From IMG/VR virus record IMGVR_UViG_2671180429_000014: 6,034 nt of DNA; one strand, written 5' to 3'. Both the position numbers and the translations under genes were made by a program. Source of the DNA: a virus. Lineage: Duplodnaviria > Heunggongvirae > Uroviricota > Caudoviricetes. The notes under the pieces are model-generated. The model ran no database searches. It had not been told where the DNA came from and was given only the letters and a program-made list of their open reading frames with translations. Shown one piece after another: positions 1-5,937 of this stretch (position 1 is its first letter; the number at the start of each line of letters is the position of its first letter).

Positions 1-289
1 TCGCAACCGCATCATTCACCGCCTGCTGCAGTACATCCGGATCATAATCACGACCATCACGCGGTACCGGAATGGTCCCCACAGCGTCATCCACCATCGC
101 CTGCAGAACCGGATGTACCTCATCCACCGTCACATGCTTCTGTAATACCGCCGACAGGGAAGCCAGTTTCTCTTCAAACGCTTGTGCCTGCGCGGCCATC
201 TTCCCCTCAAATGTGCGCTGTAAATCCGCCAGCACCGTGGAGAATTCTTCGCCCAGTGCACGAATAATGGACAGTTCCCGTTCCGTCAT
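1..289 (-). CDS. Hypothetical phage protein, N-terminal 96 codons only (continues past window start); function unknown
   Basis: Manual translation of the reverse complement from ATG at 289..287 is open for 96 codons to the window edge (MTERELSIIRALGEEFSTVLADLQRTFEGKMAAQAQAFEEKLASLSAVLQKHVTVDEVHPVLQAMVDDAVGTIPVPRDGRDYDPDVLQQAVNDAVA...). Its ATG overlaps the portal stop as ATGA (plus 286..289 = tcat). Not in the ORF track, presumably because it has no stop inside the window. I do not recognise the sequence. Confidence 0.5.
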   Translation of the reverse strand, partial: MTERELSIIRALGEEFSTVLADLQRTFEGKMAAQAQAFEEKLASLSAVLQKHVTVDEVHPVLQAMVDDAVGTIPVPRDGRDYDPDVLQQAVNDAVA

Positions 290-1503
290 TTTCTCAGTAT
301 CCCCCTGAACATCGCTTTCACTGCATCATGCTCTGTTTCACTGATTGCCTTATTACCGTCAGATGCGCCGTCAGGCAGTTGTGCTGAAACTGTTTTCCCG
401 GCCGACGCGAACGGGTCCTCACGGGCATCACGACGGGACAGCGCCTCCAGACTGTAGTTCTGCTGCTGAAGATACAGTGCATCACCACCGGCAAGGGGCG
501 GCAGGTTCTCACGTTTACGGGCCTCATTGGGCGTGAGAAGCGTATTTTTCACTGATTCACCCAGTGTTTTCATGCGCCGTTCGCTGTCCATTCTCAGCAG
601 CGTGGTGACGTCAAACTCCGTGCTCTCGTTTTCCCCCGTTTCCAGCGCCTCATCCAGTAACAGCTCAATGGACTCAATCAGCGTCTGCAGACACTGGGAA
701 TAATACTGCTGCTCCAGCGCCTCCACGTTGTCACTGGAAGGCGGGTGGCCAACGCCAATCTTGTAGGCCGGGACACGGAACACCGAACAGACAATTTCAG
801 CNNNNNNNNNNNNNNNNNNNNNNNNNNNNNNNNNNNNNNNNNNNNNNCCGCCATTTCTGAAAAAATACGTCGAATTTGCCTGAATATGATGCCCCTGCAT
901 GGCGGCCAGTCCTGCGGCATACACCGGCGGCAGCCCCACAAGCGGATGAAAAAAACAGTTAAAACGGTCGTGGATCACCTCCCGGGCAGGCACCGTCACC
1001 GACTCTGTGATCCCACAGTTCCGGTCCGGCGTGATGCGGTAGAACACGTCGCCGTCATCCGCCACCAGAGGTTCAACCCGGTTCCAGTCCAGAATACGCA
1101 GTTCTTTGATCTGCCCCCGGGGGTTGCGGATTTTCAGCACCACCGTATTGCCGTGACGCAATTTGGAATTCAGCCACAGTTCAAAAAACTGGATGCGATT
1201 CTGCTGCGCATTAGGACGACGACAGAGACGGGCAGTATCTCCCTGCCGCTTTTCCCGGCGTATTCCCTGTACATCAGTCTGCATCAGGCGAAGCCGCATT
1301 TTGGCGATATCCTGGGATATCAGCGAAATGCATGAAAACACCGCGTGAAAGGACAAAACGGTTTCCGGATCGGCTTTCACACCCTGCTGCCAGGCACCGG
1401 CAAAAGGCTCAGCCACCGCCTGAAACAGGGACCGCCAGCCCACTTCTCTTACGTCACGTCCTGATTTCTGGTTTTTTCGGGTTCGCCGCAAAAGGTTCCA
1501 CAT
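286..1503 (-). CDS. Phage portal protein, HK97-like family; reading frame interrupted by a 46-nt N run
   Basis: 405-codon ORF with ATG start at 1503 and an in-frame stop 5 codons upstream, so no longer N-terminus is possible. GGAG sits 8 nt upstream of the ATG. Motifs typical of HK97-type portals: SFHAVFSCISLISQ near the N-terminus, EIVCSVFRVPAYKIG, and C-terminal LTPNEARKRENLPPLAGGD. Recognition is from memory of the family. Confidence 0.85.
   Translation of the reverse strand: MWNLLRRTRKNQKSGRDVREVGWRSLFQAVAEPFAGAWQQGVKADPETVLSFHAVFSCISLISQDIAKMRLRLMQTDVQGIRREKRQGDTARLCRRPNAQQNRIQFFELWLNSKLRHGNTVVLKIRNPRGQIKELRILDWNRVEPLVADDGDVFYRITPDRNCGITESVTVPAREVIHDRFNCFFHPLVGLPPVYAAGLAAMQGHHIQANSTYFFRNGXXXXXXXXXXXXXXXXAEIVCSVFRVPAYKIGVGHPPSSDNVEALEQQYYSQCLQTLIESIELLLDEALETGENESTEFDVTTLLRMDSERRMKTLGESVKNTLLTPNEARKRENLPPLAGGDALYLQQQNYSLEALSRRDAREDPFASAGKTVSAQLPDGASDGNKAISETEHDAVKAMFRGILRK
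802..847. other. Run of 46 N (assembly gap or masked bases) inside the portal gene
   Basis: Directly visible: c at 801, n at 802..847, ccg at 848..850. The X residues in the ORF track come from this run. Confidence 0.99.
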
Positions 1504-1678
1504 TCGCCATGCTCCGCATCACGTTTCTTTTTCTGACCTGCCGGACGTCGCGCTGTGATGTACTCCGCCTTCCCCAGGCGAACCAGCACCTCCGCACACG
1601 GCTGTGCCACATCACGGATATCCCCGGCCCGGGCATCATGCGTGCCCTGCAGATACTGGATTTTTGCCATCTGTTACT

Positions 1679-1714: not shown

Positions 1715-3652
1715 TCAGCCACCGGACGCAGTTCCGTAGTTCACACCGGTGATCACCGCCACTGCCGCGGTACGGCGACGACGCCAGTTGATCCAGCGCT
1801 CCGCACGGATGGCCACGCTGCCGGTCTGAAACATGGAGACCAGTTCCACCGGTGACGGTGTGCTGCTGTCGCTGGTCGGTTCAGACTGCATCTCCAGTGA
1901 CGCTTCACGGGACATATCCACCGCCACACCGCCGTCATCAGCCAGATAAATATCCGGTGCATTCACCAGTACCAGCTGGTCACCCACATACTGGGAGACA
2001 ATCACCGGCAGCCCCTGGAAGGTCCCGCCCAGCAAGGTCATGTCCGGATATTCCTTCTGACCCAGCGCATTTTTACGCATGGACAGCGCCAGGGCATTGG
2101 TGCTGGACATCAGCCAGACCGCACCGGTGGGCTGCAGATTTGCCGTCACAAACTGGCCAAACGCGGCCTCGGCATCCGCATCCGGGTTACCGGTTGATGC
2201 CGTGCCCTTCACATCATGGGTGATGGACGCCGGGGAGACATCCGCCACCGCCGCTTTTTTCGGGTCCACAAAGTCTGTGTCCAGACGCGCCACCACCGCT
2301 TCCGCCAGCGCATTACGGACCAGTGCATCAGCAGCCGGACTGGAAAAACGGATCAATTCTTCCGTCAGTACCGCAATGGCCGACACTTTCGCATGACTGA
2401 AGGTGATGGATTCAAAATCAAACTTCGTCAGGGGTCTGGCCTTACCCTCACCCACCCAGCCGGCAGCACCACCGGACACCTGGGCATGCACGCGGATATT
2501 GAACGGCACCTGACGAAGTGCAGGGATCCCGCCCTGACCAAATCGCCCGATAATGGTCTGCGGACGCAGGTAATCAATAAAGTCCTGCGCATATTCCTGG
2601 TATTCAGACAGGCTGCCTGCCCACTGCGGGTCCGTGGTGGTCCCTGCCCCCACCGCCGATTTCAGGACATGATGCAGACGGCTGTCATCCGGATACTGAC
2701 GACGGGCCACTTCCAGGGCTTCAGAGCGGACACCTTTAGCCGCGGCCAGTGATTTGGCAAAGCGGGCGAAACCAATCCCCTTCTCCAGTTTCTGCTCAAC
2801 ACGGATCACCGGCGCTGAAGCCACCGTGGCCACATTCCCGTTACCGGCCTGTTTCACCGGCTGTGCCGTGGCGGCCTTACTGGTTTCCAGTTCACGCAGA
2901 CGCTTCAGGTGCGCATCCACCTGACGGATTTCCGCTGCGGTGTTGTCGTAGTGCTCTTCCTCTTCCACATCCAGTGTGCGGCCTTCCTCTGCGGCTTTGT
3001 TCATGATCTCCTCAAGGGAGGCTGCCAGCGCCGCACGCTTGTTTTCAAAACTTTTAATCTGTTCACCAGTATTCATTGCTGACTTTTCCTTATGAAAAGA
3101 GGTTATTGACTGTGCCGAAGCGCCGGCAGAAGATGCGATTTTCACCACCGGTTTCCGGTTGCCGGACGCGGCAGAAAACGGGCGGTCGAAATATTTAATG
3201 GTCCGGATGGTGCATTCCGCATTCGCGGGCACGGTGACGGCAGACACCTCCATCAGCTCCCAGCGCAGAAAATGCAGTCCGCCTCCGTCCAGATAAGTGT
3301 ATTCATGGGGCCGGAAGCCCACAGAAAGCCCCCTGACCAGCCCGGTCTTAATGGCAGCCCAGGCCTCATCCAGCCGGGCTGCCATCTGGGAGGGCATCCC
3401 CGGCTCCGGCTTCACCAGCATTGCCGTGATTTCCAGCCCTTCCCTGACCCGACGCACCGTACACTGGCCTACAGGGCGGGAATGGTCATGCTGCCAGAGA
3501 AACGGGATCGTACTGCCAAACTCCGCCCCCTCCGGCTCCAGGATGTCACCATCCCGATCCGGAGAAGGCGTTGACGCAATCCCGGTGATCACCCGTTCAT
3601 CCTCACTGAAGGATTTCACCGTCAGCAGGGAACAGGCCCGTTTAAGAGTCAC
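1715..3652 (-). CDS. Fusion ORF: HK97-type prohead protease domain (about residues 1-157), Ala/Ser-rich linker, coiled-coil scaffold-like segment, major capsid domain (about residues 260-645)
   Basis: 645-codon ORF starting at GTG (3652..3650) with AGGAGG (3663..3658) 5 nt upstream. The N-terminal region carries the His and Ser motifs I associate with HK97 gp4-type proteases (LWQHDHSRPVG and RGLSVGFRP) and the PANAECT segment. Residues about 193-260 are Glu/Lys/Ala-rich and predicted coiled-coil (EQIKSFENKRAALAASLEEIMNKAAEEG...LKRLRELE), resembling a capsid delta domain. The C-terminal 385 residues are assigned as major capsid by size, position and context; this part is inference (about 0.7). 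Confidence 0.82.
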   Translation of the reverse strand: MTLKRACSLLTVKSFSEDERVITGIASTPSPDRDGDILEPEGAEFGSTIPFLWQHDHSRPVGQCTVRRVREGLEITAMLVKPEPGMPSQMAARLDEAWAAIKTGLVRGLSVGFRPHEYTYLDGGGLHFLRWELMEVSAVTVPANAECTIRTIKYFDRPFSAASGNRKPVVKIASSAGASAQSITSFHKEKSAMNTGEQIKSFENKRAALAASLEEIMNKAAEEGRTLDVEEEEHYDNTAAEIRQVDAHLKRLRELETSKAATAQPVKQAGNGNVATVASAPVIRVEQKLEKGIGFARFAKSLAAAKGVRSEALEVARRQYPDDSRLHHVLKSAVGAGTTTDPQWAGSLSEYQEYAQDFIDYLRPQTIIGRFGQGGIPALRQVPFNIRVHAQVSGGAAGWVGEGKARPLTKFDFESITFSHAKVSAIAVLTEELIRFSSPAADALVRNALAEAVVARLDTDFVDPKKAAVADVSPASITHDVKGTASTGNPDADAEAAFGQFVTANLQPTGAVWLMSSTNALALSMRKNALGQKEYPDMTLLGGTFQGLPVIVSQYVGDQLVLVNAPDIYLADDGGVAVDMSREASLEMQSEPTSDSSTPSPVELVSMFQTGSVAIRAERWINWRRRRTAAVAVITGVNYGTASGG

Positions 3653-3657
3653 ATCAG

Positions 3658-3663
3658 CCTCCT
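3658..3663 (-). promoter_or_regulatory. Shine-Dalgarno AGGAGG for the protease-capsid ORF
   Basis: Minus-sense ...UUUUUUUAUUUUC AGGAGG CUGAU GUG; 5-nt spacer to the GTG start, immediately preceded by a U-rich tract. Confidence 0.6.
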
Positions 3664-3715: not shown

Positions 3716-5377
3716 TTATATGAAAAAAACCTCATACGCTTTCTTTTTCGGTTCCGGATTCAGGGACATCAGGGACACCGCATTGAAGAGCGCCATCAGC
3801 GGGTCAATTTTTCCCCGTCCGCTGGCCTGTTTGGTGATAAGAATGGCGTTACCTTTAGGCTCCACCCGGGCATTACCGACACACCAGGCCATCAGGGGCT
3901 GATCACCGTGAATCAGCACCCCTTCAGCCAGTTTGCGCTCGGTGGTTTTGATGGCCCCGCCCAGCTTCCAGCCCTGGCTTATCCCCACCACACTCTCATC
4001 GGGGATCCCGGCTTCCGCCAGTGAATCCAGAATCTGCCCCACACCTGACGGGTCAATACCGATATGATCCAGTAACTCAGCCTCATGAATACGACGCACA
4101 TACTCCGCCACTTCCGCCGTGTCATCCCCGACCCGACGGACAATCGTCATGTCTCCACAGGCCACAAAATCCTGAAACCGGGATGCCTCACTCTTCCGTC
4201 TGACCACCGCGGTTTCATGCACCCAGGCATGGCCCCAGCCCAGCCATTCGCGGGTTTCCCTGTCACGGCCAGTCACGTACATTCCCAGCAGATCATCCAG
4301 GCCCCCGCCGTCAATCCCCACCGTCACCACATCAGCGCGCTGCAGGATATCGTCCAGGCTGACGCGCCTGCCCTGCTGCTCCCAGAAATCCGCGCCCGCC
4401 CAGCGGTCAGAACGCAGGGCAAGACCGATTTCCACATTGGCGTGTTTTGACATGAAGCCACGAAATGCTTCCTCACCAGCCTCCCGGGCTTTACGGTACT
4501 CCCGGTACAGAAAGGCCTCATCCACCGAATAACCGAGATTCGGGTTAACCATGGCGAGGTTTTCCATCAGCAGGTGAGCCCCGCTTTCCACCATTTCAGG
4601 AGGATGCTCAAAAATCACCGGCAGAAAGTGCGGATCATGAATTTTGCCGTCACGGACATCCCGGGCATACTGCAGTTTCTGTCTGAACACCCCGGCGGGC
4701 GGTTCATTCGACTGGGTGGTCGTATACACCACAAACCCTTCCGGACGGGAGGCAAGCCCGCCGATGGCTTCACGTAGCATGTCTTCCGCCTTGTACTGCT
4801 TGCCAAACAGCCACAGTTCATCAATCAGTGTCCCCACGGACTTGATACCGGACACCGTATTCGGATCGGCTGCCACCACCTTCAGGGTGGTGTCCGTCAC
4901 CCGATGGGTGATGGTCCGGATATGTGTCTGCACCTGACAGAGGTCATCCAGATCATCGTCCCGTCGTACCATATCCCTGGCAGGGTTGAAGGCGTTAGCC
5001 GCCACCTCCACGGTCGGGGCCAGAATGGTGTAGCCCGCCGCCTGCCGCCAGTTCAGTAACAGCGCCGTCATCATGATCCCCGCAGCCAGCGTGGACTTAC
5101 TGTTTTTCTTGGGGATAAGGATAAACACTTCCTTGATATGGCGAACACCGGTCTGCGCATCGTAGGAGCCAAACAGGGCCGCCACCAGGTCAAACACCCA
5201 CGGTGCACAGGACTCCCCGAATGTCGGGCTACCCGGTGCATCCACAATTCGCAGTTGTTTAAAAATCGCCAGTGCATGTGCAGCCTGGTCCGGATAAATC
5301 GGAGCCGGAATAATCGACAGCCCCTTTTTCAGGCGCTCTGCCCAGTCCGGGCAGGCCGTGCTCCACACAGGTATCAT
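3716..5377 (-). CDS. terL: Terminase large subunit (lambda/HK97-like Terminase_1-type ATPase-nuclease)
   Basis: 553-codon ORF with ATG at 5377 and GAGG 7 nt upstream. Walker A-like ILIPKKNSKSTLAAG near residues 85-100, LKVVAADPNTVSG and DELWLFGK segments, and C-terminal nuclease-region motif GKIDPLMALFNAVSLM, all typical of this terminase family as I recall it. Start overlaps the terS stop as ATGA (plus 5374..5377 = tcat). Confidence 0.9.
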   Translation of the reverse strand: MIPVWSTACPDWAERLKKGLSIIPAPIYPDQAAHALAIFKQLRIVDAPGSPTFGESCAPWVFDLVAALFGSYDAQTGVRHIKEVFILIPKKNSKSTLAAGIMMTALLLNWRQAAGYTILAPTVEVAANAFNPARDMVRRDDDLDDLCQVQTHIRTITHRVTDTTLKVVAADPNTVSGIKSVGTLIDELWLFGKQYKAEDMLREAIGGLASRPEGFVVYTTTQSNEPPAGVFRQKLQYARDVRDGKIHDPHFLPVIFEHPPEMVESGAHLLMENLAMVNPNLGYSVDEAFLYREYRKAREAGEEAFRGFMSKHANVEIGLALRSDRWAGADFWEQQGRRVSLDDILQRADVVTVGIDGGGLDDLLGMYVTGRDRETREWLGWGHAWVHETAVVRRKSEASRFQDFVACGDMTIVRRVGDDTAEVAEYVRRIHEAELLDHIGIDPSGVGQILDSLAEAGIPDESVVGISQGWKLGGAIKTTERKLAEGVLIHGDQPLMAWCVGNARVEPKGNAILITKQASGRGKIDPLMALFNAVSLMSLNPEPKKKAYEVFFI

Positions 5378-5937
5378 CCGTTGCCCTCATTATCATTATT
5401 CACCACCAGGCGGGGTGGTGGTGGCACCGCAAAACGGTTAGCCGCTTTTTTCGCCGCGTCACCTTTTGCCGATTTTTTACCGGCATCCCCTTTTTTATGG
5501 TGCGTGAACTGCGCCAGCTTATAAGCCGCATCCAGCGCCAGCCTGGGGTCGGTATTAATGTTCTCCACCAGAAGACGCCCCATCGCTTTCACCGGATCGG
5601 GAAGACCATCCTCCATATATTCAATACCAGGAGACATCACCGCGGACGGTGGCATCTCCGGATTGTTTTCGTCCGGCTGTGGTATTGCAGCCGCCTCACG
5701 GCGACGGGGTTTATCCTCCTGCTCTGATTTTTTCTGCCGGTAAACAGGAACCTCATCCACCTCCACCGTCTCGCATTGTTTACGGGCTATAAACGCAAGC
5801 ACCTCCGGATCTTTTGCCAGCTGCGAGCCTTTAACCCTGGCGGTCTTCGCCGAATAACCAGCGGCAATGGCTGACGCTGTTTTGTTTTTCCCGGACATGA
5901 GCGCCAGCGCAAATTTTCGTTTTTGCGTTGTCAGCAC
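5374..5937 (-). CDS. terS: Terminase small subunit (Terminase_2/P27-like, N-terminal helix-turn-helix)
   Basis: 187-codon ORF starting at GTG (5937..5935) with GGGAGGAGG immediately upstream and an in-frame TGA 21 codons further up with no ATG between. N-terminus MLTTQKRKFALALMSGKNKTASAIAAGYSAKTARVKGSQL matches the HTH pattern of small terminases of this type. Lys/Ala-rich, low-complexity C-terminus. Sits directly upstream of terL and is translationally coupled to it. Confidence 0.75.
   Translation of the reverse strand: MLTTQKRKFALALMSGKNKTASAIAAGYSAKTARVKGSQLAKDPEVLAFIARKQCETVEVDEVPVYRQKKSEQEDKPRRREAAAIPQPDENNPEMPPSAVMSPGIEYMEDGLPDPVKAMGRLLVENINTDPRLALDAAYKLAQFTHHKKGDAGKKSAKGDAAKKAANRFAVPPPPRLVVNNDNEGNG

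Follow-up and report, generated by a model that had tools for sequence, protein, structure and literature searches.

Tailed phages and herpesviruses alike must bring a maturation protease into the procapsid in the right, sub-stoichiometric amount. How might this be achieved when the protease and the coat protein are encoded by a single uninterrupted gene? The question is raised by a 6,034-nucleotide (nt) stretch of the IMG/VR virus record IMGVR_UViG_2671180429_000014 (Caudoviricetes), hereafter the window, in which one open reading frame (ORF) of 645 amino acids (aa) runs from a prohead protease through a scaffolding (delta) domain to an HK97-type major capsid protein (MCP). A preliminary description, made from the letters of the DNA alone, had drawn attention to an in-frame ATG with an apparent ribosome-binding site at the junction of the two parts and had proposed that two products could be made. 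We put at roughly 80% the probability that a lambdoid (Shiga toxin, Stx-type) E. coli prophage encodes both protease-delta-MCP and delta-MCP alone in this ORF, which would then, as its sequence suggests, be a nested head gene with two starts.

The sequence features on which this idea was based are present. From protease to capsid the 645-aa ORF is one frame with zero stop codons, beginning with GTG at 3652..3650 and ending with TGA at 1717..1715, and it matches both Peptidase_S78 and Phage_capsid. The junction reads cat AAGGAAaag tcagca ATG, with a Shine-Dalgarno-like (SD) AAGGA 10 nt ahead of the ATG that forms codon 193, and the translated linker reads RPFSAASGNRKPVVKIASSAGASAQSITSFHKEKSA immediately before that Met. 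An in-frame internal start codon with its own putative ribosome-binding site is therefore found at the protease/scaffold boundary, as in genes of the lambda C/Nu3 type, and the product sizes computed from the two starts are those that had been proposed (Table 1). Within the window itself, the combination of SD and ATG is not above chance in a GC-rich gene, and for this reason comparative tests replaced single-sequence statistics; the signal becomes significant only by comparison with relatives.

With 160 loci added from metagenomes and IMG/VR, 188 loci were usable for this comparison, 178 of them fused. The junction codon was ATG in 169 of the fused loci and GTG in eight, and the remaining one (L023) reads aaggaaacgct ATG, offset through alignment. 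Across 20 Enterobacterales proteins, aa 157-192 varied in both sequence and length, and Met193 was invariant and was followed by conserved MN(I/T)(A/G)EQIKSFE. In every fused enterobacterial locus the ATG was preceded, at a distance of 6-10 nt, by AAGGA, AGGAA, AGGGA or GAGG, and the residues encoded over this SD differed from locus to locus (KEK, KGN, KGK, TGN, QGK, QEV, KGF and KEH). The preliminary description had named a continuous conserved domain across the junction, with no internal start, as the finding that would speak against it; what the homologs showed was a variable linker ending in a conserved SD and ATG or GTG.

We then compared the junction with other positions of the same genes. 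A predicted duplex with the anti-SD sequence at or below -5 kcal/mol was found at 92% of 128 unique fused junctions, versus 15.5% of all in-frame positions and 17% of the other internal ATG and GTG codons of these genes. When conserved Met columns were used as the control, an SD was present in 93% at the junction column versus 2-40% at most others; one control column, which sits behind a conserved Gly-Gly, reached 77%. Non-Met replacements at the other conserved Met columns were CAG, CTG and GCN, and never GTG. At the junction column GTG was the only recurrent non-ATG codon (5/124), a few other codons occurring once each, and Val at this position was encoded by GTG in 7/7 unique cases, for which the chance is about 0.37^7, or roughly 1e-3, given that GTG makes up 37% of Val codons elsewhere. 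Codon choice was also skewed ahead of the start: within the five codons lying 6-18 nt upstream, Gly was GGA or GGG in 68/98 cases (69%) versus 20% across the remainder of the gene (Fisher p=2e-25), and Glu was GAG in 72% versus 49% elsewhere.

The same picture was obtained when the sequences were thinned to one representative for each of 48 clusters at 70% identity. The start-anchored nucleotide profile of these representatives had a single upstream peak, G-A-G-G at -12..-9, in 31-36 of the 48, with flanks that were nearly information-free; the start codon was A/G-T-G in 48/48, and the median SD value was -5 or lower in 43/48 clusters. The RNA around the start is also distinct from the rest of the gene, as a 50-nt segment there had a G+C fraction of 0.42 versus 0.59 for the gene and a folding energy of -5.8 versus -13.0 kcal/mol, and it ranked among the 10% least structured of its own gene for 71% of genes. 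Together, these alignments show that the junction carries the signature of an initiation site and that this signature is under purifying selection.

Relatives in which the protease and capsid genes are separate offer a second view of the junction, where the preliminary description had suggested looking for a stop codon. Such stops do occur, in Snodgrassella (L025, L028), Acidovorax (L024), Stenotrophomonas phage SOVA965 and the metagenomic and viral-contig loci L056, L059, L105, L111 and L178. In these relatives the capsid start codon aligns exactly with Met193 and has an SD ahead of it, and the protease stop lies just before or inside that SD. The in-frame stop adjoins the SD in L056 (ctcTAAggaaacaccGTG), L105 (aagaggTAAatccagATG) and L111 (cacaagTAAATG), and in these three loci one in-frame TAA just upstream of the start is the sole difference from the fused arrangement. 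Capsid-only cluster representatives (P0193, P0233, P0258, P0260 and P0267) likewise begin at the residue equivalent to Met193. Judged from these alignments, the junction site must act as the capsid start in the split-gene phages. A separate candidate, -1 frameshifting on the A-runs found at some Enterobacterales junctions (e.g. ccaaaaaaggaaac), was rejected, as the window and most clades are without a slippery heptamer.

The fused gene is widely distributed. Of 5426 complete E. coli genomes, 1252 contained a match at 90-100% nucleotide identity, and the match covered at least 80% of the gene in 1249 complete genomes. The gene was also found in long-tailed Stx1a, Stx2a and Stx2c converting phages (e.g. 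Stx2a_WGPS2, 2851, BP-4795, YYZ-2008 and 1717), where its annotation varies between 'major capsid protein', 'phage prohead protease' and 'major head protein/prohead protease'. Full-length relatives of 643-650 aa with 73-77% identity occur in Salmonella, Klebsiella, Enterobacter, Serratia, Pantoea, Kosakonia and others, and a scan of species-representative genomes recovered intact fused ORFs at 31-57% identity in Proteus, Candidimonas, a Burkholderiaceae metagenome-assembled genome and the alphaproteobacterium Reyranella. Overall, intact fused ORFs span Enterobacterales, Pseudomonas and the beta- and alphaproteobacteria. When 50%-identity cluster representatives were searched exhaustively, 1174 proteins had an E of 1e-30 or below; among the best 150 of these 1174, about 145 were fused, with identities ranging over 31-54%. 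By this distribution, the fusion is genuine and ancient. The separate gp4 and gp5 genes of HK97, together with an assembly gap elsewhere in the window (the N run at 802-847), might have pointed to a sequencing or assembly artefact in which a stop was removed or the frame restored between two separate genes. This explanation is hardly conceivable, and the frame-restoring error that the preliminary description had wished to see excluded is already refuted by the 1249 E. coli genomes in which at least 80% of the gene is covered, by the intact 644-650-aa ORFs in many genera, by the curated families that exist for the full-length protein and by the annotation of Pseudomonas phage PAJU2 ORF003 as 'prohead protease fused capsid protein'.

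Some copies of the gene depart from the intact form. An IS1 element interrupts it in some O157-type genomes (NZ_CP027331, NZ_CP074874, NZ_CP074868 and NZ_CP074750; H1-H4), and these interrupted copies are annotated as two genes, 'HK97 family phage prohead protease' and 'phage major capsid protein'. Longer fusions are also present in databases (P0002, P0003, P0123 and P0132), including one of 1079 aa that contains a TerL ATPase domain, one of 784 aa that contains a portal domain and proteins of ~1090 aa with a 440-aa N-terminal extension. These may not be real proteins and could instead stem from read-through gene calling or faulty assembly. The copy of an Arsenophonus endosymbiont (L020) is broken by frameshifts and stops, with an open frame of only 72 codons at the protease start; its junction SD and ATG are still recognisable, and the decay fits prophage erosion in an endosymbiont genome.

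How the two products would work together can be outlined as follows. Initiation at GTG 3652 would yield a 69-kDa polyprotein made up of the S78 protease, a flexible tail, the delta scaffolding domain and the predicted HK97-fold capsid protein, and initiation at ATG 3076 behind the internal SD (AAGGA, 3091..3087) would yield the 48-kDa delta-MCP alone. Because they share the delta and shell domains, we propose that the fusion and the plain delta-MCP co-assemble into the procapsid, and because delta domains point inward, a protease tethered at the N-terminus would be carried inside with them and would need no separate targeting signal. After assembly, the protease would cleave off the delta domains, the linker or tail and itself, and how strong the two initiation sites are relative to each other would determine the protease-to-capsid stoichiometry. 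We infer the production of both proteins, their ratio, their co-assembly and the cleavage sites from sequence. Mean SD energies (-7.4 upstream versus -7.1 internal) are clade-dependent and uninformative as a predictor of the ratio: in Pseudomonas phage PAJU2 and several metagenomic lineages the internal SD (GGAGGG) exceeds the upstream one in strength, and in the E. coli clade the upstream SD is the stronger, so that the product ratio is not readable from sequence. The full-length start codon is GTG in the E. coli/Stx-phage clade and ATG in other Enterobacterales, behind a similar GGAGG (loci L002-L018), and this difference may tune the amount of fusion protein. In broader terms, a large and widespread family of HK97-like phages, including the long-tailed Stx1/Stx2c/Stx2a phages of E. 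coli O157, probably carries a three-in-one nested gene that places the protease covalently on a minority of coat subunits, with the two starts setting the stoichiometry and the gain or loss of a single stop beside the SD switching the gene to or from the HK97 two-gene form.

Several observations weigh against the nested two-start gene. The internal SD of the window is modest, with an anti-SD energy of -6.2 kcal/mol that lies at the 23rd percentile among the in-frame positions of the 645-aa gene, in which several further in-frame ATGs score near this value. The upstream SD (AGGAGG, 5 nt ahead of GTG, -10.3) is stronger than the internal one (AAGGA, 10 nt ahead of ATG, -6.2), and dominance of the short product in the E. 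coli clade is for that reason not evident. The loci compared are phylogenetically related, such that their counts overstate independence, and 48 clusters at 70% identity remain; homology searches also favour fused genes, which biases the fused-to-split proportion. Moreover, selection on the protein might in principle account for Met or Val as the first residue of the delta helix and for the preceding Lys-Gly/Glu. As for novelty, full-text searches of limited coverage found no internal start described in protease-coat fusions, and an earlier mention is possible.

Two other explanations accept that the fusion is real and account for the junction differently. If only the full-length polyprotein were made, there would be one protease for each capsid subunit, and the internal SD and ATG would be a relic of a once separate capsid gene. 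The stronger SD of the upstream site in the E. coli clade would suit this explanation, and genes of this kind have been described, namely the single-ORF protease-scaffold-capsid gene of Gifsy-2 (Effantin et al. 2010, as cited in PMC12315714) and P2 gpO, described as one full-length protease-scaffold protein (bioRxiv 10.64898/2026.09.13.751334). We nevertheless consider it unlikely: a relic would decay, whereas 48 clusters (down to ~31-50% identity) retain the SD core, the ATG or GTG, the SD-compatible codons and the weak RNA folding despite the divergence of the linker, and Val at the junction is always GTG. It is also possible to regard the conserved Lys-Gly/Glu ... Met as a feature of the protein, such as a site of autoprocessing or the turn with which the delta helix begins, rather than as a translation signal. 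The linker does contain motifs conserved at the protein level, AA[ST]G and [AP]G[AV][ST][AG], and AlphaFold places Met193 at the exact boundary between disordered linker and helix. However, the residues ahead of the Met vary (KEK, KGN, TGN, QGK, QEV, PEEG, KEG, RKG and so on) while the purine core is kept, synonymous codons are biased to those that form an SD, the only recurrent replacement of the Met is GTG, and the junction RNA is rich in A and T and unstructured; selection on the protein would lead one to expect none of these. A purely protein-level origin of the pattern thus strikes us as very unlikely.

The domains of the 645-aa protein were assigned by profile, structure and alignment searches (Table 1). 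For the protease, PF04586 (Peptidase_S78) matched aa 48-151 at 32.7 bits against a cutoff of 21, and the TIGR01543 equivalog reached 44.1 bits, under its cutoff of 59, which makes the protein a member of the broad family and not a strict HK97 gp4 equivalog. The domain has 29% identity to HK97 gp4 (BLASTP, E=2e-7), with H55 paired to H65 and S110 to S114, His65 and Ser114 being what we take to be the catalytic residues of gp4. All of 124 fused ORFs have H55 and S110 without exception, indicating that the protease part is under selection, and on this evidence it is functional. S78 was the only protease family matched by the profile searches, and these revealed no homology to lambda gpC/Nu3 or to herpesvirus assemblin.

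Table 1. Features of the head gene and its neighbours, with positions in the window
Feature	Position	Strand	Basis or remark
Full ORF, from prohead protease through linker and delta (scaffold) domain to predicted HK97-fold MCP	1715..3652	minus	645 aa, 69.4 kDa; ORF list and Pfam
SD of the full-length product, AGGAGG	3658..3663	minus	5 nt upstream of GTG; anti-SD duplex -10.3 kcal/mol
S78 (HK97 gp4-type) prohead protease domain, aa 1-156	3185..3652	minus	Pfam PF04586
Predicted catalytic His55	3490..3488	minus	aligned to HK97 gp4 H65
Predicted catalytic Ser110	3325..3323	minus	aligned to HK97 gp4 S114
Protease C-terminal tail/linker, aa 157-192	3077..3184	minus	predicted disordered; final codons overlap the putative internal ribosome-binding site
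AASG motif, aa 161-164	3172..3161	minus	consensus AA[ST]G
AGASA motif, aa 176-180	3127..3113	minus	consensus [AP]G[AV][ST][AG]
Internal SD-like AAGGA (Lys188-Glu189)	3087..3091	minus	10 nt upstream of internal ATG
Internal in-frame ATG, Met193	3074..3076	minus	putative start of 453-aa delta-MCP, 48.4 kDa
Delta (scaffolding) domain, approx. aa 194-285	2798..3073	minus	AlphaFold, TIGR01554 and weak PDB match
Predicted HK97-fold capsid shell domain, approx. aa 286-645	1718..2797	minus	PF05065, TIGR01554, weak match to PDB 9d9w
Small terminase (terS)	5937..5374	minus	ORF list and Pfam
Large terminase (terL)	5377..3716	minus	ORF list and Pfam
73-aa ORF	1670..1449	minus	ORF list
Portal gene	1503..286	minus	ORF list and Pfam

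Between the protease domain and the delta helices, aa 141-193 were predicted by AlphaFold to be disordered, with a predicted local distance difference test (pLDDT) score of 24-35. The preliminary description had likened the end of the Ala/Ser linker to a translated intergenic ribosome-binding site; the last ~5 codons (K-E/G-K...) behave as one, and the remainder does not. Both motifs of that remainder are conserved in 124 fused ORFs and 150 cluster representatives, and a free-standing Acidovorax protease carries them too, which identifies the linker as the protease's own C-terminal tail. The AASG and AGASA sequences may serve in autoprocessing or as a signal for binding the capsid, and they are, with the end of the delta domain, candidate sites of maturation cleavage.

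The stretch following Met193 had been described as the N-terminus of a delta domain, an assignment that is borne out by the TIGR01554 alignment, by the predicted helices and by the start of the capsid-only relatives. TIGR01554 (major_cap_HK97, a model that includes the delta domain) matched aa 204-584 at 80.9 bits against a cutoff of 27.5, with residue 204 paired to profile position 3, and two long helices, aa 195-222 and 229-261, are predicted right after the disordered stretch with pLDDT 72-76. Two weak capsid matches were returned in all by the sequence search of the PDB: residues 7-64 of a major head protein (9gyi_B) with aa 201-258, and a major capsid protein (9d9w) with the shell domain. 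PF05065 (Phage_capsid) matched aa 386-635 at 55.5 bits against a cutoff of 24.2. Pairwise BLASTP against HK97 gp5 was not significant (E=0.33), so that membership in the HK97-type MCPs rests on the profile matches. The AlphaFold run used a 20-sequence alignment and had a mean pLDDT of 43.7; it is informative for the protease (65-80), the linker and the delta helices only, and aa 337-645, where the alignment was shallow, stayed below 50. The protein is matched end to end by phrog_617. The model for prohead protease/MCP fusions, NF045541, reached 52.7 bits against a cutoff of 525 and covered aa 49-267 only; by its profile scores, the 645-aa protein is a fusion lineage other than NF045541.

The large ORFs of the window are all on the minus strand and together make up a phage head module, in the order terS, terL, protease/capsid fusion, small ORF(s) and portal. 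The placement of the portal gene after the capsid gene appears to be typical of the family, as in Stx2a_WGPS2 and Pseudomonas phage PAJU2. terS and terL overlap by 4 nt (5374-5377), a usual sign of translational coupling. The 73-aa ORF that lies between the capsid and portal genes shares 55 nt with the beginning of the latter, matches phrog_829 (function unknown; E=8e-39) and is labelled hypothetical in NC_049941. Within the portal gene, the 46-N run at 802-847 marks the assembly gap; by alignment to NC_049941 it replaces 193 nt, leaving the gene 147 nt (49 codons) too short, such that the 405-aa portal ORF of the window is artefactual and the true protein would have ~454 aa. A further gene starts ~4 nt before the portal stop and exits the left edge of the window (1-289, minus strand). 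Its 407-aa counterpart in NC_049941 (L001 9511-10734) is named 'portal protein', yet had no significant Pfam match, Phage_portal included, and this label is probably a mis-annotation. No second head protease was recognisable by Pfam in the module, including the 407-aa product downstream of the portal gene.

Nested in-frame protease/scaffold genes are known from lambda (C/Nu3), the herpesvirus HSV-1 (UL26/UL26.5) and, through ribosome profiling, the archaeal virus HFTV1 (gp17/gp17.5), and in these systems the tether brings the protease into the procapsid, in a stoichiometry that depends on the two initiation sites (bioRxiv 10.64898/2026.09.13.751334). In HSV-1 the protease is borne by about 10% of the scaffold subunits (PMC4611051), and the nested architecture is conserved in Herpesvirales (PMC11565193). 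The head gene of the window has in common with them an N-terminal protease on the longer protein and a C-terminal part that is predicted to be made from an in-frame internal start as well. Unlike in lambda and the herpesviruses, the nested product would be a scaffold domain still joined to the capsid protein and not a free scaffold. The protease is also of a different type, S78 (HK97 gp4) as opposed to gpC in lambda and assemblin in herpesviruses, and the short form, which has its own transcript in herpesviruses, would here depend on an internal SD.

The comparison with HK97 is closer at the level of protein families. The protease family is the same (29% identity, catalytic His and Ser aligned), as is the capsid family (TIGR01554), and the SD of gp5 lies within the last codons of gp4. 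As the preliminary description had stated, gp4 and gp5 are separate adjacent genes; unlike in the window, a TAA divides them, they are in different frames and the HK97 protease is free. Duda and colleagues are said to have found in 2013 that this free protease is packaged through its C-terminal tail. The order of the genes differs too, being terL-portal-protease-MCP in HK97 and terL-protease/MCP-portal in the window. In both, the scaffold is the N-terminal domain of the capsid protein (PMC10275583).

Fusions of protease and coat are themselves already catalogued, as PAJU2 ORF003, NCBIfam NF045541, PHROG 617/4523 and the SEA-PHAGES 'major capsid and protease fusion protein', and none of these annotations records an internal start. 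PAJU2 ORF003 is a homolog from the same family, with the same terS-terL-fusion-portal order and an internal GGAGGG-7 nt-ATG. The protease of the Salmonella phage Gifsy-2 is ClpP-like and not S78, which would make Gifsy-2 an independent fusion. Like the window, Gifsy-2 has protease and coat in one capsid gene, according to PMC12315714.

The arrangement appears common: about one complete E. coli genome in four carries it, as do many prophages of proteobacteria. Annotation pipelines label the gene either 'major capsid protein' or 'prohead protease', and the 453-aa product is missed. If the nested two-start gene is real, mass-spectrometry and capsid-size predictions made from the 645-aa product would be wrong, and work on Stx-phage particles and on capsid-sensing defence should weigh both forms. 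The junction also offers a natural and easily testable case of an in-frame internal initiation site with the marks of clear purifying selection. Two solutions to the packaging of a maturation protease are known: HK97 uses a C-terminal targeting tail, and lambda, HSV-1 and HFTV1 fuse the protease to the N-terminus of a scaffold, which they produce on its own as well. The head gene described here suggests a third combination, in which the protease is fused to the coat protein itself and an internal start supplies the plain coat, and it would bring the principle of nested protease-scaffold genes to phages in which the coat protein has the scaffold as one of its domains.

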